Shown here one piece after another: positions 1 through 15,669 of a stretch of DNA of 23,509 nt. How positions within the stretch are numbered: position 1 is the first letter of the stretch; every line of letters begins with the position of its first letter. The translations under genes and the position numbers were made by a program. The DNA lies in UHGV virus genome UHGV-1357133, one strand, 5' to 3'. The notes beneath the pieces were generated by a model that saw only the letters and a list, made by a program, of their open reading frames with translations, did no database searches and was not told where the DNA came from. Source of the DNA: a virus.

Positions 1-54
1 AAGCAGATGACCGCCTGGCGGAAGAACTTACTTACTGGACGGACTAACCCATGA
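1..54 (+). CDS. 3' end of an upstream gene (partial, hypothetical)
   Basis: Frame 1 is open from the window edge to TGA at 52-54, which overlaps the ATG at 51-53 of the next gene (ATGA coupling). Too short to assign a product. Confidence 0.35.
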   Translation, partial: KQMTAWRKNLLTGRTNP

Positions 55-533
55 AAACTAACCACCCGGCGCACGGTCCTGTATCACTCGATCGCCTGCA
101 CCAGATACGCGAAATACTCAGCAAAGCAGCAGCACAAAGCGACGGAGGTAATCTCGGCTACGCAATGGCTGATGCTGTGAAGGTGATTGACGGGGTTCTG
201 GAGTCGATAGTCCGCGAACAAGTACGCCGTGAACATGCAGCATGGTCACTGGCTACTTTCGGCGATGTCGGTCCAGTTGGTCCGCTGAAGCACCTTTCCA
301 AAGAAGCGCTCGAGGCGGCAGCTGAACCAAGTGACCTTACCGAATGGGCTGACATGCAATTCCTGTTATGGGATGCGCAACGTCGTGCCGGTATCAGTGA
401 TGAGCAGATTACCCTGGCGATGGTAGAAAAGTTGGCGGTTAACAAACAGCGCGAATGGCCTGAGCCGAAAGATGGTGAGCCGCGTTTGCACATTAAATCT
501 GATCATCAGCCAGAGACAGAACGAAAAAAGTAG
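51..533 (+). CDS. DUF550-like phage protein (sometimes annotated dATP/dGTP pyrophosphohydrolase-like)
   Basis: 160-aa ORF with ATG start coupled to the upstream gene. The C-terminal half (EWADMQFLLWDAQRRAGISDEQI...) resembles DUF550 proteins of lambdoid prophage early regions, from memory. Confidence 0.65.
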   Translation: MKTNHPAHGPVSLDRLHQIREILSKAAAQSDGGNLGYAMADAVKVIDGVLESIVREQVRREHAAWSLATFGDVGPVGPLKHLSKEALEAAAEPSDLTEWADMQFLLWDAQRRAGISDEQITLAMVEKLAVNKQREWPEPKDGEPRLHIKSDHQPETERKK

Positions 534-614
534 AGCGCTGCGATACCTGTACTGAAGGCGCTCGCGGCGGATGTGGAACATGTATTTTTAACGGTAATTT
601 TTGATGAGGTGCTC

Positions 615-800
615 ATGACTACTACCGATTTTATGGAAGAACAGGAAGTATTTAACCTGCTTGGAAAAAAGAAAACCGCGGTATGGCGTTTACGTAAAGA
701 CCATGGTTTCCCTATGCCTGTTTTGACATATCCAACACGCTACAGTCGTAAGGCCGTAACGCGTTGGTTAGAAGATGGGGGAATTAATAAATCTAGCTAA
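615..800 (+). CDS. alpA: AlpA-family helix-turn-helix protein, putative excisionase / prophage regulator
   Basis: The track ORF begins at a GTG at 573, but the ATG at 615 has a GAGG Shine-Dalgarno 5 nt upstream. The product (EVFNLLGKKKTAVWRLRKDHGFPMPV...SRKAVTRWLEDGG) matches the AlpA/Vis/TorI pattern that accompanies P4-type integrases. Confidence 0.75.
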   Translation: MTTTDFMEEQEVFNLLGKKKTAVWRLRKDHGFPMPVLTYPTRYSRKAVTRWLEDGGINKSS

Positions 801-820
801 GTTAGTACAGTTCACATCAA

Positions 821-1336
821 CTAGGTGTTTTTTTGATCTTCAAGCATTTTTTGCAACTCTGGGTTGTCGTTCGCTTGAGTTGCTCTGTGTGAATTGTACT
901 CTTCAAGAGTTTCATTACGTTCTTTTAATTTTTGAGTGTAGGTATTGCTTATAATATCGTGGCGATCTTGTAACACCTGTTCAAGTTGCTTACAGAAATC
1001 GGCAATCTTCTCTTTAGAGATAATGTCTTTATACTTTTCAATATTTTTTCTAAGGAGTTTTTCTTTTCTTTTATTAATACTTAATAATTGTCTATTTACA
1101 CTGCCTAGTGACCATTTGAACCCAAGCGTTTTAATCCAATGAGACAAAAACATTGCCAAGCATGGGAGTGCAAGTAATATCCATGACTTAAGCGAGGATA
1201 AATCTGAATCTATAAACGATAAATGACCATCCCAAGATGCTACAACTAAAGTAACAGCCCCAGTCAAGCCACTAGCAACAGCATTCGAAATAAGAGGTAC
1301 TTTTTCGTAACTTTCAGGTGTTGATTTTTCAGTCAC
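821..1336 (-). CDS. hypothetical membrane protein (two predicted TM helices, charged coiled-coil C-terminus)
   Basis: The track ORF is 821..1366, but the GTG at 1334-1336 lies 5 nt after an AAAGGAGG Shine-Dalgarno and overlaps the stop of the upstream gene. Hydrophobic stretches VPLISNAVASGLTGAVTLVVASW and WILLALPCLAMFLSHWI are followed by a K/E-rich tail. Region is AT-rich. No family recognised. Confidence 0.6.
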   Translation of the reverse strand: MTEKSTPESYEKVPLISNAVASGLTGAVTLVVASWDGHLSFIDSDLSSLKSWILLALPCLAMFLSHWIKTLGFKWSLGSVNRQLLSINKRKEKLLRKNIEKYKDIISKEKIADFCKQLEQVLQDRHDIISNTYTQKLKERNETLEEYNSHRATQANDNPELQKMLEDQKNT

Positions 1337-1577
1337 CTGCACCTCCTTTGACTGCTTTTCCGTCACGGATTGCAGCCATAGCTACTTCATAGAACTCATC
1401 ATCAGTTGAAACATCAACAAACTGTTCATGGCTAACACCCTCATCATCAACGTATTCTAACAACAACCTATGCTGTGGAGTGCACATGTAGCGTATACGA
1501 TCAAAGAGAATCTTGAAGGCCCAGTATAGCACGGGGAGGACGCTGAAAAAGGCCAGCCAGAAAGCAAAAGCTGTCAT
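1329..1577 (-). CDS. hypothetical small membrane protein (N-terminal TM helix)
   Basis: 82-aa ORF with ATG at 1575-1577 preceded by AGGGGGGG 4 nt upstream. N-terminus FAFWLAFFSVLPVLYWAFKILF is hydrophobic. Sits 23 nt downstream of the 291-aa gene and overlaps the next gene. Confidence 0.6.
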   Translation of the reverse strand: MTAFAFWLAFFSVLPVLYWAFKILFDRIRYMCTPQHRLLLEYVDDEGVSHEQFVDVSTDDEFYEVAMAAIRDGKAVKGGAGD

Positions 1578-1600
1578 GATCCCCCCCTAATTTAACTTGG

Positions 1601-2476
1601 TTATAAAAGTTCGTTCACTCTATCAACTATGTAGGTTTTGTCCAGAGAATTCAAGTTTTCCCGAACAAGCAGGTCAACGTAGTAAACATCGCTAAAAATC
1701 CTTGATTCTCGGCCTGTACGAACCCGTTGCAAGAAGTCTTCATCTTCTATTGTAACTGTTACAGTTTCGTCTTCATAATTCGCGCGCCATCCGGTATTTT
1801 TGTCCTTGTGAATAGTAAGGAAGGTAATTGGTACATCGTCGAATTTTTGTTCAGAATATGACTGTTCCACAGGAACTCTGCGATATCTAAACGGCTCAGC
1901 TTCTTTTTCGTTAACTACCACAAAGTCCTTACCTTGAGAGTTAGAAATTTTGAATGTTTCATACCCCTCTTTTTGTAATGGGTTGTGTATTATTTTAGAT
2001 AACGCCTTCCGTATACTAGGTGATGACAGTAATGGCCTAAAGTACGACGGAGCGACAATCTCTTGCCCATCTTCAAGAATAATTTTGCAATCGCCATCTG
2101 CTGTTAAAGCAATTTTTTGAATTTGCCGCCCACTAATAGAACGGATTATTTCAATTAAAGTACTTCCGGCTGCGACTACACCAGTTCCTCCTATACCTAT
2201 GATACTTAAAATATCTAAATATTGTGTTGGATTTTGTATTACATCAATTAAATATTCAAATGACCCTTCGCGAAATGGCTCCACATCTACATTGAGATTC
2301 TCACTGGTACCATTGACAATTAAGTTTACTTCTTTAAGTAGATTATTTAATCCGTTGAGAGATTCAGTTAAAATATCAAGGTCTATTTTATGATTCTTTA
2401 GAGCTTCACCATCATATTTAACTACCAATTTATCAACTACTTCACCTTCATCCGTTACATTTCTTTTATTTTTCAT
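1601..2476 (-). CDS. hypothetical protein, 291 aa, predicted soluble, with a glycine-rich GIGGTG loop
   Basis: Long ORF, first gene of an AT-rich three-gene operon, ATG preceded by AGGAA. No TM segments seen. No family recognised from memory. Confidence 0.65.
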   Translation of the reverse strand: MKNKRNVTDEGEVVDKLVVKYDGEALKNHKIDLDILTESLNGLNNLLKEVNLIVNGTSENLNVDVEPFREGSFEYLIDVIQNPTQYLDILSIIGIGGTGVVAAGSTLIEIIRSISGRQIQKIALTADGDCKIILEDGQEIVAPSYFRPLLSSPSIRKALSKIIHNPLQKEGYETFKISNSQGKDFVVVNEKEAEPFRYRRVPVEQSYSEQKFDDVPITFLTIHKDKNTGWRANYEDETVTVTIEDEDFLQRVRTGRESRIFSDVYYVDLLVRENLNSLDKTYIVDRVNELL

Positions 2477-2567
2477 AATAACAATTCCTATTTAAGAAAT
2501 AAATATGACTTCTGTTGACTCTAAACATTTTCGTTCTAAAAATATACACTAACATACAGCTAAAAAA

Positions 2568-3737
2568 TTAACATATTTGCTTAATATGCCAGAAGATTTT
2601 GTCTGCATACAACTCATATGCCTCTTTCTGCTCCACCAGCCAATCGTGTTTGTTATAAACCGCCATCACCCCTCCCAGTTCATGCCCCAGCATCTTTTCG
2701 GTGACATGGGGCATAACCCCTTCTCCTGACAAATTGGTTACCAACGACCGCCTGAAGTCGTGCGTTCGCCATTCTGGTATATCAATTTTATCCCTTAACT
2801 TTTTCATGTAGAGATTTGCTGACGAACGATCTATGGCCTTGTCCAGTTCCTGCCCGGGGAAGAGAACATCGTTACCTGAATTAAGCAGCCTTTCCACGAA
2901 TGGCTTTACTTGGTCGAAAACAGGCCTGCGAATCACATTTCCCATCTTGGAGTGCTCTGATGGAGTTGTCCAAATCAAATCATCCATATTGAACTCGCTG
3001 GCGGTAGCAAGGCGAAGTTCCGACAACCTTGCCCCCCAAAGCAACAGAAGCTGATGAAGTACCTTGTTAGAGGTAACGATCTTGTTGTTTTCCAGCGCTA
3101 ACCATATTTTTGCCAACTCGGTATAGGTGAGAACCCGGCTACCAACATCAGGTTTCTTTCCTATGTTCTTAACACTGAGCTTCAAGACTTCGCATGAAGC
3201 GATCAACTGTCGGCTTATACACCAGTTCATTACAGATCGGAGCTGGAGAAGCAGCACTCTGGCCTTTTTTCCGTTTTTCTTTTCCTGCTTGTCGAAGAAC
3301 CTTACCCAGGCTGAAACAGGAATATTTACAACCGGTGCATCCGGGAATTCTGTGTACATGGTGTTGTACACAACAGACTTGTACAACGTTTGCGTATTTG
3401 GTTTCAGCGTTTCAACATACTTGCTCCACCACTGATCCAGACACTCTTTAAGTGTTAGCTCACCATCTTCTTTAGCAAAATAATTTTTAGGGTTTAGTCC
3501 CTTGAGGTACAATTCGCGCATCTCACCCACGATGACACGAGCATCTTTCAGAGACATTGCCGGATAGCGCCCTATAGTAAGGCGCACTGGCTTACCGTTC
3601 CAACGGTAGCGATGTTGAAACGTAATCGTTCCTGTCGGGGTTATGCGTACACTTAGACCGTCACCATCTGTCACTTCGGGTGCGCCGTTGTAGGGCTTAG
3701 CATTGATGCTGCGAAGTTTGGTATCACTGAGGGCCAC
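2568..3737 (-). CDS. int: tyrosine-type site-specific integrase, P4-like family
   Basis: N-terminus ALSDTKLRS...GLSVRITPTG...WNGKPVRLTIGRYPAMSLKDAR matches the arm-binding domain of P4-type integrases; the C-terminal region (HDFRRS...LGH...Y) fits a tyrosine recombinase catalytic domain. The track ORF starts at GTG 3758; GTG 3737 gives the family-typical MALSDTK N-terminus. Start is uncertain. Confidence 0.85.
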   Translation of the reverse strand: MALSDTKLRSINAKPYNGAPEVTDGDGLSVRITPTGTITFQHRYRWNGKPVRLTIGRYPAMSLKDARVIVGEMRELYLKGLNPKNYFAKEDGELTLKECLDQWWSKYVETLKPNTQTLYKSVVYNTMYTEFPDAPVVNIPVSAWVRFFDKQEKKNGKKARVLLLQLRSVMNWCISRQLIASCEVLKLSVKNIGKKPDVGSRVLTYTELAKIWLALENNKIVTSNKVLHQLLLLWGARLSELRLATASEFNMDDLIWTTPSEHSKMGNVIRRPVFDQVKPFVERLLNSGNDVLFPGQELDKAIDRSSANLYMKKLRDKIDIPEWRTHDFRRSLVTNLSGEGVMPHVTEKMLGHELGGVMAVYNKHDWLVEQKEAYELYADKIFWHIKQIC

Positions 3738-3741
3738 GGCT

Positions 3742-3794
3742 CTGTATCCTGTACACACTGAATTTCAGCATTCTGTACTCAATCTGTACGCAAT
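3742..3794. repeat. cluster of CTGTA(C/T) direct repeats, including tandem CTGTACTCAAT / CTGTACGCAAT
   Basis: Four CTGTA(C/T) copies read directly within 3742-3794, spanning the integrase start and its upstream region. Possible protein-binding sites; function unknown. Confidence 0.4.
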
Positions 3795-3946
3795 GGCAAG
3801 TGAACGAAGTGATTTTCTAAGCGGAAGAATGAGAAAGGATAGGAAATAAAAGGAATGAAATGCTTGATGATACGGGGAATGATAGGATAACATGCGACTC
3901 AAGCTGAATGCTTGAAAATCAGTTAGATATATGTCCCCTTAGTTAA

Positions 3947-4001
3947 ATGGATATAAATCAACATTTCACTAATAAATTGTTTTTATTGAATTTATATCCA
4001 T
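3947..4001. repeat. 12-bp perfect inverted repeat ATGGATATAAAT / ATTTATATCCAT with 31-nt AT-rich spacer
   Basis: Arms at 3947-3958 and 3990-4001 read directly from the sequence. Located in the AT-rich intergenic region between int and dinI. Function unknown. Confidence 0.5.
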
Positions 4002-4057
4002 AATTAATTTAAATAATGTACTCATTTATGTACACATAAATTCAACTTAACCCGTGC

Positions 4058-4105
4058 TTGACGTATGCTCCTGAAATAGCTTAAATACTGTATATCCAAA
4101 CAGTA
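4058..4105 (+). promoter_or_regulatory. dinI promoter with overlapping LexA (SOS) box
   Basis: -35 TTGACG (4058-4063), 17-nt spacer, -10 TTAAAT (4081-4086). TACTGTATATCCAAACAGTA (4086-4105) fits the CTGT-N8-ACAG LexA consensus and overlaps the -10. AGGAG Shine-Dalgarno at 4111-4115 precedes the ATG at 4123. Confidence 0.8.
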
Positions 4106-4122
4106 AAGTAAGGAGAAAAAAT

Positions 4123-4362
4123 ATGTTTGTTGAGCTGGTTTATGACAAGCGTAATGTTGAGGGATTGACGGGAGCCAGAGAGATCATCCTGGCTGAACTG
4201 ACGAAGCGTGTGCATCGGATTTTCCCGGATGCAGAAGTGAAGGTGAAGCCGATGCAGGCAAACGGCCTGAATAGCGACGCCAGCAAAAGCGATCGAGAAA
4301 AGCTAAACCGTATGCTTGAGGAAATGTTTGAAGAAGCCGACATGTGGCTGGTTTCAGAATAA
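4123..4362 (+). CDS. dinI: DinI-family DNA-damage-inducible protein (prophage homolog)
   Basis: 79-aa product with the DinI pattern (FPDAEV...acidic C-terminus EEMFEEADMWLVSE) and a LexA box immediately upstream. Strand is opposite to the neighbouring tail genes. Confidence 0.85.
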   Translation: MFVELVYDKRNVEGLTGAREIILAELTKRVHRIFPDAEVKVKPMQANGLNSDASKSDREKLNRMLEEMFEEADMWLVSE

Positions 4363-4521
4363 GAGCATTGTTTTGTCATATTGCATATGTAGAATCCGCA
4401 CCGGCTGGCAATCATTCAATACTCGCACTATCGAACGAACGCCAGCCTGCCGCCGCACGTTCTTGCATACGACGAGCGGCGACATCTATTAAAAGGGAAA
4501 AAGGACTAACTGCCCCTTCCT

Positions 4522-5718
4522 TTACTGCCCTTTCAGTTTGGCAATCTCAGCTTTTAACTCTTGCACTTGGCCCATTATCGCCAGGATTGCTTCATGGTGA
4601 AGTGCCGCCGCGATGCCGTAAGTATCCACTGATTCGACATTTTCAATTTTTTCCCCGTCAGGTAGTTCATAAGTCATGTTGTTGTTTTTTATCGCACCAG
4701 GAAAATATGTCCTGGCTTCACTAGCCACAAAGCCGAACCCTTGTGTTTGCGTGTTTTCATAAAACCAGGAATATCCACGCATGCTTTCCATCGCCACGAG
4801 TGGTTCAGGAATTGTCTCTAACAGGCTTTTTACCCTGATGTCTGATACAGGTTGCCAGTTACCAACCGCCCTGCCATCCGGGAAGAAGTTAAATGAGCTA
4901 CCAGATCCATCTGATCCGACATACAATTGCACAGCCCTGACATCGGTAGAATCACCACGAACAGGACCCAGAGTTAACCCACCATCAAACCATGTTGCCT
5001 GTAAATATCCAACGAACGCACCAGGGGAAATAGTTGCTGCATTGTTCCATATTTTTATGCCATTCACGTTTGCGGAGTTTTTTAAGCCTATATAACTTCC
5101 CGCAGTCGCATATATAGAACCATCAACAGTGCCGCCAGATTTATTGTTTATAGTCAGTAATCTGTTATCATCTCCAGCCGCTACAGTTCCAGCCACTGTT
5201 CCAATATTCTTTGTCGCGCTACTTCCCAGGCCTAAGTTTGTGCGAGCACCTTCTTCAGTGGTTGATCCAGTACCGCCCTGATTAACAGGCACAGCTCCAC
5301 CGGATTTAGTAGCCATGTTATCAGACAAGTATTTCCATGATGGTCCGCTGTATGTACTGCCGTCCGGCAACTTCACTGTTATGTTTCCAGATGCGCTGTA
5401 TACCTGCTGCCAGTTCTGCTTGTCGTAATTCAGTCCACGTAGCGCTTCTGCACTTTGTGCAACCAGCGCTGCAGTTACCATGTTGAGCGCCACGCGGGGA
5501 ACGGCAGACCACGCAGCTTCGGACTGTGTCGGCCCTGTGTATGCGCTGACCAGCGTCAGGCCCGTGTCACTCTCTACCGATTTAACCGGCAGAGTGTATG
5601 GTACACCTCCGACCATTACTACAACGAAATCTCCTGCAGCGAGTTCCGTTACAAATGAAGTACCGATACCCGTCACAATGTCAGAGTTATTGGTCAGGGT
5701 TAAAGTTCCTGCGGACAT
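4522..5718 (-). CDS. tail fibre protein with C-terminal intramolecular chaperone (peptidase S74-like) domain
   Basis: 398 aa, Gly/Ser/Thr/Asn-rich fibre-like sequence. C-terminal region contains SDIRVK followed by a coiled-coil tail (QVQELKAEIAKLKGQ), typical of self-cleaving chaperone domains. GAGGAAAT Shine-Dalgarno upstream. Confidence 0.75.
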   Translation of the reverse strand: MSAGTLTLTNNSDIVTGIGTSFVTELAAGDFVVVMVGGVPYTLPVKSVESDTGLTLVSAYTGPTQSEAAWSAVPRVALNMVTAALVAQSAEALRGLNYDKQNWQQVYSASGNITVKLPDGSTYSGPSWKYLSDNMATKSGGAVPVNQGGTGSTTEEGARTNLGLGSSATKNIGTVAGTVAAGDDNRLLTINNKSGGTVDGSIYATAGSYIGLKNSANVNGIKIWNNAATISPGAFVGYLQATWFDGGLTLGPVRGDSTDVRAVQLYVGSDGSGSSFNFFPDGRAVGNWQPVSDIRVKSLLETIPEPLVAMESMRGYSWFYENTQTQGFGFVASEARTYFPGAIKNNNMTYELPDGEKIENVESVDTYGIAAALHHEAILAIMGQVQELKAEIAKLKGQ

Positions 5719-10993: not shown

Positions 10994-11155
10994 AAATACT
11001 CCTGGAGAAATACGCGCAACGGCGATACTGATCATTTGTCAGGGTGTTACAGGTCAATATCCCTGGTTAAAGTGTGTGGTTCAGCCCGTCAGTGGTTGGA
11101 CACTGGCGCACTCAGCGCAGAGGGATGGCTGATTACCTCTGATTAAGGAAATATC

Positions 11156-11449
11156 ATGTCTAATGAACAGCGTATCGAAAGCTTCGAAGCCCGTATTCGT
11201 AAGCTTGAAGAGGAAAACACTAAGCAGAAACAAAAGCTACTAACTCATGAAATTATGACGGGACTTATGTTGACAAATATTTTAAGAATGGTTGACTCAT
11301 TATCTCCTAGTGCAAACTTATCACAACGGTTGCTGGAATCCCTGCAAAAAGGCCAAGCAAAAATTGCTGATAGCGATGCGAGAAATGACCCTCATACAAA
11401 GGACGCATTTGAAATGGCAATTAAGACTGTGAATCGAGCGCTAAAATAA
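11156..11449 (+). CDS. hypothetical 97-aa protein (cargo gene inside tail module, opposite strand)
   Basis: ATG preceded by AAGGAAA 5 nt upstream. AT-rich relative to flanking tail genes. Predicted coiled-coil N-terminus (EQRIESFEARIRKLEEEN). Its 3' end overlaps the convergent 119-aa gene by 29 nt. Confidence 0.5.
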   Translation: MSNEQRIESFEARIRKLEEENTKQKQKLLTHEIMTGLMLTNILRMVDSLSPSANLSQRLLESLQKGQAKIADSDARNDPHTKDAFEMAIKTVNRALK

Positions 11450-11780
11450 CAGCGTTATCAAGAAGACGATCTCTTAGTTTATCGTAGTCCTTATCATTTT
11501 CCGCGGCCTGTTTTCGGGTCGCTTCAATAATCTTCGAGAGAACATTTTGAGCATGCTCTTTCGCTCTCTGGTTGTACTCTTCAAGCGTAAGCTCTGGCGT
11601 TAAGTCTTCGCTGTATTGGATAGTAGCTAAGGTTTCTTTGCTAATTTTCACAGACACATTACTGCCAATGCGTTGTGTCGATGACATGCGTAAATTTTCT
11701 CCGAAGGATATTCTTACTCCATTTTCTTCCGGAAACCCAACTTTAAATTCAAGAGCCTCAACTCGCTGTTCTAAAGTCAT
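11421..11780 (-). CDS. hypothetical 119-aa protein (cargo gene downstream of tape measure)
   Basis: ATG preceded by AGGAGA 5 nt upstream. AT-rich. N-terminus MTLEQRVEALEFKV resembles the N-terminus of the convergent 97-aa ORF. Confidence 0.55.
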   Translation of the reverse strand: MTLEQRVEALEFKVGFPEENGVRISFGENLRMSSTQRIGSNVSVKISKETLATIQYSEDLTPELTLEEYNQRAKEHAQNVLSKIIEATRKQAAENDKDYDKLRDRLLDNAVILALDSQS

Positions 11781-11825
11781 AATTATCTCCTGCCTTTCGG
11801 CTAATTAAATTAAGGATGCAGACCA

Positions 11826-14800: not shown

Positions 14801-15113
14801 CCTGCTTTAGCCTGGCATTAACAGAGCTCCATTCATCGGCCAGCGATATAAGATGACCAGTCGCAAATGCTCCAGCAAATGCACCAGCCATTCCCAGTGC
14901 TGAGGCCTTCGCGGTGTTTATTTGACTAGTTACCTCAGCCAAGGCACGCTGAGTTTCACGCGAAGCTGCGGCCGATTGGCGTCCTCCAGTCTGCATTACC
15001 CGGTAATAGTCATTCCCCATTCTTGAAGCACGAGAAATTTCAGACTGGAATGACTGAGAGTTTGCAGATATTTTGATGATCAGTTCGCGCAACGTAGCCA
15101 TATTTTCACCCAT
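11826..15113 (-). CDS. tail tape measure protein
   Basis: 1095-aa Ala/Gln-rich, largely helical protein in the canonical position after G/T. The first ATG (15111-15113) directly abuts a T-tract with no Shine-Dalgarno; the in-frame ATG at 15099-15101 (MATLREL...) is a more plausible start. Confidence 0.85.
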   Translation of the reverse strand: MGENMATLRELIIKISANSQSFQSEISRASRMGNDYYRVMQTGGRQSAAASRETQRALAEVTSQINTAKASALGMAGAFAGAFATGHLISLADEWSSVNARLKQASQSSDDFTESQRALMDISQRTGTAFSDNASLFARSAASMREYGYSSEEVLKVTEAISTGLKLSGASASEASSVITQFSQALAQGVLRGEEFNSVNENGDRVIRALAAGMGVARKDLKAMADQGMLTADKVVPALISQLGTMRGEFEAMPQTVSAATTKVENAFMAWVGGANEATGATSTLVAVLNTVSDNIDTVATAAGALAAIGGARYLGGMFGDLGNQTAQLIDARKNEIALAAARAESATQSQRKAAADAIAAERAYQLAQSELVLAKNTNAEATATQNAISKRREMITANAALVQSNRAVAASQQALNSATSVLGLVKTGATVLLSLVGGLPGILMLGAGAWYTMYQRQEQARESAIQYADTIEQVRDNLKSMSQTQISANLGQANISLDAQNSAIEQQKQKVAELSNQLYNAKLAANSASEGTWLYNDAVEKAADFASELAVEEGRLEQMLNKRKQTQQLINDITDQAINKTVEMAGAVSSLTEMYDRLNKVSRQSTAVSPPKYAGPVLPALDNKQQQAIEKAQRQLELSGLQGLDKARKQAEFDASDLNLPAGWREKYVSMEVESARQLQAIRNSSRHKGGKSEAEKTSDTYDKLIKQQKEQIALAGQNTELAKLKYQVSQGELATLTESQKQTLLQNAALIDQQKIREQLRNYEANLADSNASSRAANEAQLIGYGQGSRFRERLQEQFNIRKEFEEKNTDLLRQRQTGEIDEAFYQEALALNKRYLDERLRDQQGFYAASDAQRSDWTAGMREGFANWAETASDYASQSADLVNNAMTGLVGNISDALSGNKVDWEDWASSVLQSMQKIILNAMIVNSLQSSMGGSGFLSGLFGGSAGGSTPSGAYNSAASELQLNAKGGAYASASLSAYSNSIVSSPTYFAFAKGAGLMGEAGPEAIMPLTRSADGSLGVRVVGSQTPASGNGITQHITQHFTISGNGDAALKQAMQEAARQGANDGAKQARQDLLQDFSNRGQARRLLGV

Positions 15114-15138
15114 AAAAAAAACCCGCTTGATAGCGGGT
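15114..15138 (-). terminator. intrinsic terminator-like hairpin after the 62-aa cargo gene
   Basis: On the minus strand: stem ACCCGC / GCGGGT (15121-15126 and 15133-15138) with a 6-nt loop, followed by seven T (15114-15120), ending at the tape measure ATG. Confidence 0.6.
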
Positions 15139-15144
15139 CGTGAG

Positions 15145-15333
15145 TTATAAACTGTCTTTTCTTTGGTGAGCGACTTGTATTAATAAATCTATTTGCGCAT
15201 CTTGCTTTTTATTTATCTCTTTAAGGGCTTCAACTTGTTCATTTGCCCTTGTGCTAAACCGTAATAAATAAAAAATCACAATTAGATTTATCAGCCAGCC
15301 GAATATTCCAAACACTACTACCAGTGGTTCCAT
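15145..15333 (-). CDS. hypothetical 62-aa single-pass membrane protein (cargo gene between G-T and tape measure)
   Basis: Strongly AT-rich ORF with AGGAGG Shine-Dalgarno 4 nt upstream and a terminator downstream. N-terminal hydrophobic helix LVVVFGIFGWLINLIVIFYLL, then a charged helical tail. Confidence 0.6.
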   Translation of the reverse strand: MEPLVVVFGIFGWLINLIVIFYLLRFSTRANEQVEALKEINKKQDAQIDLLIQVAHQRKDSL

Positions 15334-15390
15334 AACGCCTCCTTTACTTAAGGAAAGAGCGTATCGCTACATTGAAGGCATGTGAAGCAA

Positions 15391-15669
15391 TTATTGTGTC
15401 GCAGCTGTAAGTGCCGCCTCAAGCCCTGCAAACGGGTCCTTCGGTTCTGATTGCTCATCACCACCCCAGCGCAGGATCGCATCGTCCAGCGGTACTTTTG
15501 CCCCCTGCGAGCCGTAGATGGCAGAGACAATCTGCGCTGCATGGATATCACCGCGAATATCGCCAACCGGACTTTGCCTGTCGTACTCAATCCACATCAG
15601 AAGCTCGCTTGCCGTCATATTCTGCCGAAGCTCTGAGAGCGTGCGCCCCATCCGGAGCGCAAGCGACAT
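15391..15669 (-). CDS. tail assembly protein T domain (likely made as a G-T fusion by -1 frameshift)
   Basis: Product MTASELLMWIEYDRQ... resembles the lambda gpT region. The frame is -1 relative to G and stays open upstream to about 15729, overlapping the 3' end of G. Confidence 0.6.
   Translation of the reverse strand: MSLALRMGRTLSELRQNMTASELLMWIEYDRQSPVGDIRGDIHAAQIVSAIYGSQGAKVPLDDAILRWGGDEQSEPKDPFAGLEAALTAATQ

Follow-up and report, generated by a model that had tools for sequence, protein, structure and literature searches.

The described systems closest to the one considered here are Rex, Kiwa and the superinfection-exclusion (Sie) and Imm proteins. Phage lambda carries its genes in the layout cI-rexA-rexB; Kiwa is ordered kwaA then kwaB, with four transmembrane (TM) helices in KwaA; and the Sie-type genes of lactococcal P335 phages and HK97 gp15 encode small membrane proteins in accessory ('moron') positions. 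Here we analyse a cassette of three genes, which we call A, B and C, on the minus strand (821–2476) of the virus genome UHGV-1357133, a stretch of 23,509 nucleotides (nt) referred to below as the window. The cassette is moron cargo in the slot between the integrase gene (int) and the excisionase-like gene (xis) of a temperate phage. Judging from comparisons of genes and genomes, it is most likely a lysogen-expressed, membrane-associated anti-phage module that would protect the lysogen from other phages. A preliminary description of the window had called the trio undescribed, which holds for the obligate A–B–C operon, absent from PADLOC and from the searchable literature, but not for A itself, a member of a family already catalogued as a defence candidate.

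A three-gene operon between int and xis

The cassette and its boundaries are laid out as follows.

3758..2568, minus strand: tyrosine integrase (Arm-DNA-bind_3 and Phage_integrase), left boundary of the cargo slot
2477..2567, minus strand: spacer between int and A, 91 nt, very AT-rich, with surrounding windows down to 27% GC
2476..1601, minus strand: gene A, 291 amino acids (aa), ATG start
1577..1329, minus strand: gene B, 82 aa, ATG start, phrog_15510
1336..821, minus strand: gene C, 171 aa, GTG start, phrog_15878
615..800, plus strand: helix-turn-helix (HTH) excisionase-like protein of 61 aa, phrog_66, convergent with the cassette and right boundary of the slot

Three co-oriented genes fill the int–xis interval, as the preliminary description had it, and the last two do overlap, by 8 nt, with a gap of 23 nt between A and B. 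The open reading frame of C as called mechanically runs from 1366 to 821 (181 aa); translation likely begins at a GTG (1336) that follows AGGAGG by 5 nt, and the resulting length of 171 aa agrees both with the RefSeq annotation of the homologue in Escherichia coli EC31 and with where phrog_15878 starts. On other contigs, independently called genes have products of 291, 82 and 171 aa for A, B and C. Shine-Dalgarno sequences had been described as strong throughout; this is so for C (AGGAGG), but that of B is fair (GGGGGGG) and that of A only moderate (AGGA, 10 nt upstream). The AT-richness first judged by eye is borne out by a GC content of 37.4% across 821–2476 against 49.3% in the remainder of the window, a value within the lowest ~1% for windows of this size. 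A search for repeats found none at the cassette borders.

Ratios of non-synonymous to synonymous substitution (dN/dS) relative to the EC31 homologues are 0.05 for A, 0.29 for B and 0.12 for C. We conclude from these low values that all three are genuine protein-coding genes under purifying selection.

The integrase has the domain architecture of the P4 type, as had been proposed, and the start annotated in its relatives gives a protein of ~389 aa. Its supposed AlpA-like partner is plausible as such, with sub-threshold matches to HTH_17 and Cox and membership of the phrog_66 excisionase family, although the 61-aa protein has no formal Pfam AlpA match.

B and C accompany A in one clade

In all 36 loci with an A protein at least 43% identical to that of the window, B and C lie directly 3′ of A, in the same order and with the B/C overlap kept. 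They follow A in none of the 14 loci with a distant A (at most 28% identity). Across Escherichia, Salmonella, Pantoea, Proteus, Photobacterium and Vibrio, identity is 33–84% for B and 20–89% for C, and the TM pattern is kept. This coupling, homology reaching from the Enterobacteriaceae to Vibrio, and purifying selection on all three genes lead us to count the trio as one unit, and it appears from these comparisons to be a functional unit fixed in one gammaproteobacterial clade. The layout of a larger protein with small membrane proteins is therefore real and conserved, but its earlier division into sensor and effector is weakened, since most members of the A family lack B and C.

The trio is reported from prophages of Escherichia, Klebsiella, Citrobacter, Salmonella, Proteus, Pantoea and Vibrio, and a profile search of genome contigs with a narrower alignment of A gave two loci. 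It was found in the following settings.

Window phage, E. coli EC31 and E. coli O157:H16: int–xis slot
Salmonella prophage that encodes a DNA polymerase A: opposite strand, between an AlpA–SNF2 pair and early genes
Proteus mirabilis prophages: directly 3′ of a cI-like S24 repressor, same strand, ending at a strong intrinsic terminator
Pantoea: inside the tail/baseplate module, co-oriented
Vibrio cyclitrophicus: adjoining the integrase of a 14.4-kb PM2-like prophage (Vinavirales, non-tailed)

Between the window and the Salmonella copy, nucleotide homology is found only in the coding block (window 2434..914), starting ~0–30 nt upstream of the A start codon. Between unrelated temperate phages, the trio moves as a unit. 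In Proteus, Vibrio, Salmonella and Pantoea, in phages unrelated to one another, it occupies sites of a kind typically expressed in lysogens or transcribed independently.

The copies differ in how they have diverged. Relative to E. coli EC31 the cassette is a mosaic, with synonymous divergence (dS) saturated for A (~2.7) and low for B (0.30) and C (0.47); relative to the O157:H16-type copy, protein identity is 95–98% for C, 83% for A and 79% for B. This uneven divergence implies recombination breakpoints inside the operon. In E. coli O157:H16 Res13-Lact-PEA12-26 (contig L002, 6436–6717), C is truncated to 93 aa and the prophage is riddled with IS3 and IS66 insertions, which marks this as a decaying copy of the cassette. 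In Pantoea ananatis (contig L018, 5527–5889), a 120-aa protein with a signal-peptide-like N terminus, possibly a fourth cargo product, precedes the trio, and the whole group is inserted between tail and baseplate genes.

A belongs to a catalogued candidate defence family

The preliminary description had recognized no family for any of the three proteins. This does not hold, because A falls at full length into PDC-S42, NF053583 and phrog_3243, and B and C into phrog_15510 and phrog_15878. In PADLOC, A matches the PDC-S42 hidden Markov model PDLC05015 (E = 2.8e-39, 133 bits, residues 16–289 aligned to profile positions 5–288 of 302), and B and C match nothing. The match of A to NCBIfam NF053583 (LAPAL_fam) scores 195.1 bits against a cut-off of 60, with residues 18–288 aligned to positions 2–288 of 292, and that to phrog_3243 has E = 2.6e-88. 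All 48 diverse relatives of A that we compared match both PDC-S42 and NF053583. PDC-S42 was nominated on the basis of relatives embedded inside BREX, DISARM or type I restriction–modification loci (bioRxiv 10.1101/2024.01.29.577857). PADLOC lists it as a single-gene candidate ('S' class), a definition to which A, in its three-gene operon, does not conform.

In a profile search of 1.84 billion representatives, the A family comprised 3,302 clusters, defined at 50% identity, with E ≤ 1e-3 as the limit, and 1,841 with a limit of E ≤ 1e-10; virtually all of its members are 280–320 aa long. The LAPAL motif, present in distant members, is absent from A, in which the aligned residues 36–40 read L-T-E-S-L and only L36 and L40 are kept. 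Pfam DUF7946 (PF25678) aligns to residues 18–79 only, at 23.2 bits (E = 8.1e-5), below its gathering threshold of 27 bits. Thirty of 72 relatives match DUF7946 at E ≤ 0.01, and several close homologues carry a precomputed PF25678 label; on these scores A is a borderline relative of DUF7946. A literature search on the family names and homologue accessions returned no experimental or other paper mentioning them, and the DefensePredictor supplements contain neither. A distant family member from Psychrobacter glaciei (P0036) bears the UniRef label 'DUF4868 domain-containing', the domain of KwaB; a direct Pfam scan of this protein and 71 relatives gave no DUF4868 match, and the label is probably a propagated error.

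The full name of NF053583, 'LAPAL motif-containing putative phage structural protein', would make A a virion structural protein, and the Pantoea copy between tail genes is in keeping with that name. We consider this role very unlikely. The cassette is carried by elements as different as HK97-like siphoviruses, the Salmonella prophage, which combines its own DNA polymerase A with tail genes like those of Pseudomonas E217, and the non-tailed PM2-like prophage; in most carriers it is found within the lysogeny module or on the strand opposite to the surrounding genes, and close relatives of the window phage lack it. Distant single-gene members of the family occur in Mu-like prophages, and others are solitary on the chromosome.

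Most of the wider family is solitary

Beyond the clade with the trio, an A-family gene is usually a solitary prophage insert, and most members lack B and C. Contexts in this wider family included the following.

Two different Mu-like prophages: solitary gene on the opposite strand, between Mor/GemA and the lysis genes
Lactobacillus phage A2, ORF19: between the endolysin and attP/int
Integrase island: one solitary copy
Chromosome: several solitary copies, with neighbours including parC, glnS and an RND pump

The chromosomal neighbours are one reason to consider a role other than defence: lysogenic conversion, an effect on membrane physiology (stress tolerance, envelope modification or colonization), or a factor of the phage's own that governs lysis timing or the control of replication and induction. 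The co-orientation of the Pantoea copy with the tail/baseplate module around it, and the fact that the defence label was given by guilt by association alone, point the same way. However, we detected no glycosyltransferase, acyltransferase, transporter or other conversion-type domain, and a core phage function is hard to reconcile with positions that vary among unrelated phages, opposite-strand inserts included, and with the lack of the cassette in close relatives. Such roles taken together are unlikely in our estimation.

Predicted features of the proteins

A is predicted to consist of an N-terminal and middle α/β region (about residues 13–190), a hydrophobic glycine-rich segment and a C-terminal OB-like β-barrel (about residues 205–290). 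The N-terminal part is predicted to be generic ferredoxin-like. The glycine-rich segment, ILSIIGIGGTGVVAAGSTLIEII in the window protein, spans about residues 86–114, of which 89–111 stand out as borderline by hydropathy; it is 23–29 residues long, and its character is kept family-wide. Positions conserved throughout the family are Y21-D22-G23, L36/L40, G71-S72-F73, R156, P166-L167, G171, W230-R231 and D245/F248, which do not look like a catalytic constellation, and we detected no enzyme-like fold, enzyme signature or invariant catalytic residues in A. A search of the PDB with the sequence profile of A gave no matches; Foldseek against BFVD returned uncharacterized proteins, OB-containing ligases and LEF-3. 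The OB-like domain is acidic (net charge −8), so we do not propose nucleic-acid binding, and a role of this domain as a sensor of single-stranded DNA (ssDNA), which we considered, is weakened by that charge.

B has one TM helix at its N terminus (residues 1–26 by hydropathy, assigned here to about 3–24), followed by an acidic tail of ~55 aa with a net charge of −7. C has two (residues 15–33 and 46–71 by hydropathy, assigned here to about 15–35 and 51–71), followed by a Lys/Glu-rich helical tail of ~100 aa. Both are predicted to be small inner-membrane proteins, and the positive-inside rule predicts that their tails face the cytoplasm, where A is. The earlier assignment of B and C to the membrane thus agrees with the hydropathy, but A, with its hydrophobic segment, is not plainly soluble. 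None of the three proteins contains a recognizable enzymatic or toxin domain.

Small hydrophobic proteins encoded by an overlapping gene pair, one of them with an acidic tail that could neutralize its partner, would fit a toxin–antitoxin or addiction module in which one membrane protein is a toxic small membrane peptide checked by a partner. We find this very unlikely: Pfam, NCBIfam and PADLOC show no similarity to known toxin–antitoxin families, A, which is both the largest component and the best conserved, stands alone in most lineages, and the copy with a truncated C is tolerated in E. coli O157:H16.

Predicted small inner-membrane proteins encoded by a prophage near int or cI, with no toxic or enzymatic domain detected, would suit a mechanism other than abortive infection, namely superinfection exclusion as the DNA enters: B and C would block translocation of the incoming genome, in the manner of P22 SieA, T4 Imm or HK97 gp15, and A would assist them from the cytoplasm or as a peripheral protein. 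The biological role would be that of the anti-phage explanation with another mechanism, a sub-variant of it. It is improbable in this form, because most family members have no membrane partner and A alone must therefore function, a conserved 291-aa cytoplasmic protein is atypical of Sie systems, and no homology to a known Sie or Imm protein was found.

The int–xis slot carries varying cargo

The cassette, foreign-looking in composition, had been placed in an integrase-proximal slot for variable cargo, and the alignment of related prophages agrees: at tRNA-Arg they carry the same int and xis with different genes between them.

Strains 219, WP2-S18-ESBL-08 and p10A: unknown protein of 437–438 aa
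Phage vB_EcoS-716R3: unknown protein of 286 aa
MB07152: caspase-family protein (PADLOC 'caspase', 4e-13)
W409: DUF2971 protein with a match to PADLOC PDC-S31 (3.5e-36)

The 437–438-aa and 286-aa proteins (L003 4316–5629; L054 2128–3441; L055 2136–3452; L050 2591–3451) have no Pfam or PADLOC match. Homology between the window and E. coli strain 219 ends at about window position 2581 and resumes at about 791, positions that coincide exactly with where int and xis end. The A–B–C cassette is absent from close relatives of the window phage. From the differing cargo and the breaks in homology at the int and xis ends, we conclude that the slot is variable and enriched in candidate defence genes. This slot in the tRNA-Arg prophage family offers a ready list of further candidate cargo genes.

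The carrier phage

The carrier is a temperate HK97/lambda-like siphovirus. The window encodes an HK97-type capsid, protease, portal, TerL, a lambda-like tape measure, a J-type tip protein and a DinI homologue. It contains an attP core (3933..3956, plus strand) with the same sequence as the opening 24 nt of tRNA-Arg, the gene flanking related E. coli prophages, and this match to the 5′ end of the tRNA gene identifies the window as the excised form of the phage. A tRNA scan found no complete tRNA in the window, and an Rfam scan of 1–5000 found no RNA family matches.

Just upstream of the attP core, AATGCTTGA occurs twice as direct copies (3858–3871 and 3907–3921), both of which also pair with 834–849 as short inverted repeats; these may be arm-type sites of the integrase or a chance match. 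A second AT-rich patch (GC 0.34–0.41), located between attP and the tail-fibre genes, contains an isolated plus-strand gene of the DinI family (4123–4362, 84 bits), a probable further moron. Immediately upstream of xis lies a gene for a DUF550/dATP-dGTP pyrophosphohydrolase (51–533, plus strand, 142 bits), which is kept in related E. coli prophages. Further AT-rich dips (GC 0.38–0.43) lie at 11001–11800 and 15001–15400, within the tail and head–tail module. The first holds a 97-aa open reading frame (11156–11449, plus strand) amid minus-strand genes, possibly an additional moron.

A candidate anti-phage module

The anti-phage reading draws on the candidate-defence status of the A family, the moron behaviour of the cassette, its place behind cI in Proteus, which resembles that of rex, the invariable association of A with two membrane proteins, and the lack of an enzymatic or structural signature. 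From these we infer expression in lysogens, complex formation, anti-phage activity and a mechanism at the membrane. In the mechanism that we propose, A would be located at the inner membrane, on the cytoplasmic side, anchored by its hydrophobic segment, by B and C, or by both. Its OB-like barrel would recognize an infection cue, more likely a protein or other ligand than ssDNA. The A–B–C complex would then act at the membrane, either by permeabilizing or depolarizing it, as in Rex-like abortive infection, or by blocking entry of the incoming genome, as in superinfection exclusion. A general role in defence or exclusion, a membrane-associated A–B–C complex included, seems to us an evenly balanced proposition; that the mechanism is specifically Rex-like and abortive is possible, if doubtful.

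Several observations weigh against an anti-phage role of this kind. PDC-S42 is one of 145 defence candidates nominated by 'guilt-by-embedding' and explicitly untested (Payne et al., bioRxiv 10.1101/2024.01.29.577857), and the NCBIfam label for the A family is that of a putative phage structural protein. No obvious defence island appeared in the ~12 wider A-family contexts sampled; the sampled contexts are prophage moron sites or solitary chromosomal sites, several of the latter next to housekeeping genes. Since most family members manage without B and C, a division into A as sensor and B and C as effector may be wrong, and A probably does more than sense. The only matches of B and C are to the families phrog_15510 and phrog_15878, both of unknown function; Pfam, NCBIfam and PADLOC gave none. 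The cassette lies downstream of int in the window, and its expression in the lysogen is an assumption; the 91-nt spacer (2477..2567) is presumed to hold its own promoter, and a promoter and terminator scan of 500–4200 gave nothing above chance and no promoter upstream of A.

In a broader reading, to which we give somewhat less than an even chance, A, B and C would form an unrecognized three-component membrane-associated anti-phage system. The PDC-S42/LAPAL core, made up of the ferredoxin-like part, a glycine-zipper-like hydrophobic segment and the acidic OB-like barrel, would be a widespread non-enzymatic sensor–effector, borne by prophages of viruses both with and without tails, in a range that extends from Proteobacteria to one Firmicute phage or more. 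It would work at the membrane by a mechanism unrelated in sequence and fold to Rex, Kiwa or Zorya, and the gammaproteobacterial clade would have recruited two dedicated membrane partners.

If the cassette does protect lysogens, PDC-S42, a bioinformatic candidate of ~3,300 clusters, would become a real defence family, and its 'single-gene' definition would miss an obligate three-gene form. The molecular mechanism would then probably be new, membrane-associated and based on an OB barrel, since the three proteins have no recognizable enzymatic or toxin domain. Prophage cargo of such a kind affects the host range of phages used for therapy in Enterobacteriaceae.

Comparison with known systems

Among the identities that we considered and rejected, a gtrABC O-antigen conversion cassette would pair the glycosyltransferase GtrB (GT2) with the polytopic membrane proteins GtrA and GtrC; A, B and C have no glycosyltransferase or Gtr domain. 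Kiwa resembles the trio in pairing a membrane protein (KwaA) with a cytoplasmic partner of ~300 aa (KwaB, DUF4868). However, the gene order is reversed relative to A–B–C, neither A nor 72 relatives match DUF4868 or Kiwa in Pfam and PADLOC, and the membrane partners here have one and two TM helices.

The Sie and Imm morons (P22 SieA, T4 Imm, HK97 gp15 and lactococcal Sie2009) are likewise small inner-membrane proteins at moron positions near int or a repressor, but they show no homology to A–B–C and lack a conserved partner of 290 aa. RexA/RexB of lambda and the Rex-like gp30/gp31 of mycobacteriophage Sbash come closer in design, being likewise prophage-encoded and comprising a non-membrane protein of ~280–290 aa followed by one or more small polytopic membrane proteins; no homology to RexA and RexB was found. 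The Proteus trio further recalls cI-rexA-rexB in lying immediately 3′ of a cI-like repressor, on the same strand, with a strong terminator at its end, a likeness of position only.

PDC-S42 itself also belongs among the closest systems. A has the same length as its members, aligns with them over its full length and shares the same conserved positions (YDG, GSF, R156, PL, G171, WR and D..F). PDC-S42 is by definition a single-gene candidate, whereas here and throughout the one gammaproteobacterial clade A forms a fixed operon with B and C, two membrane proteins absent from the defence databases.

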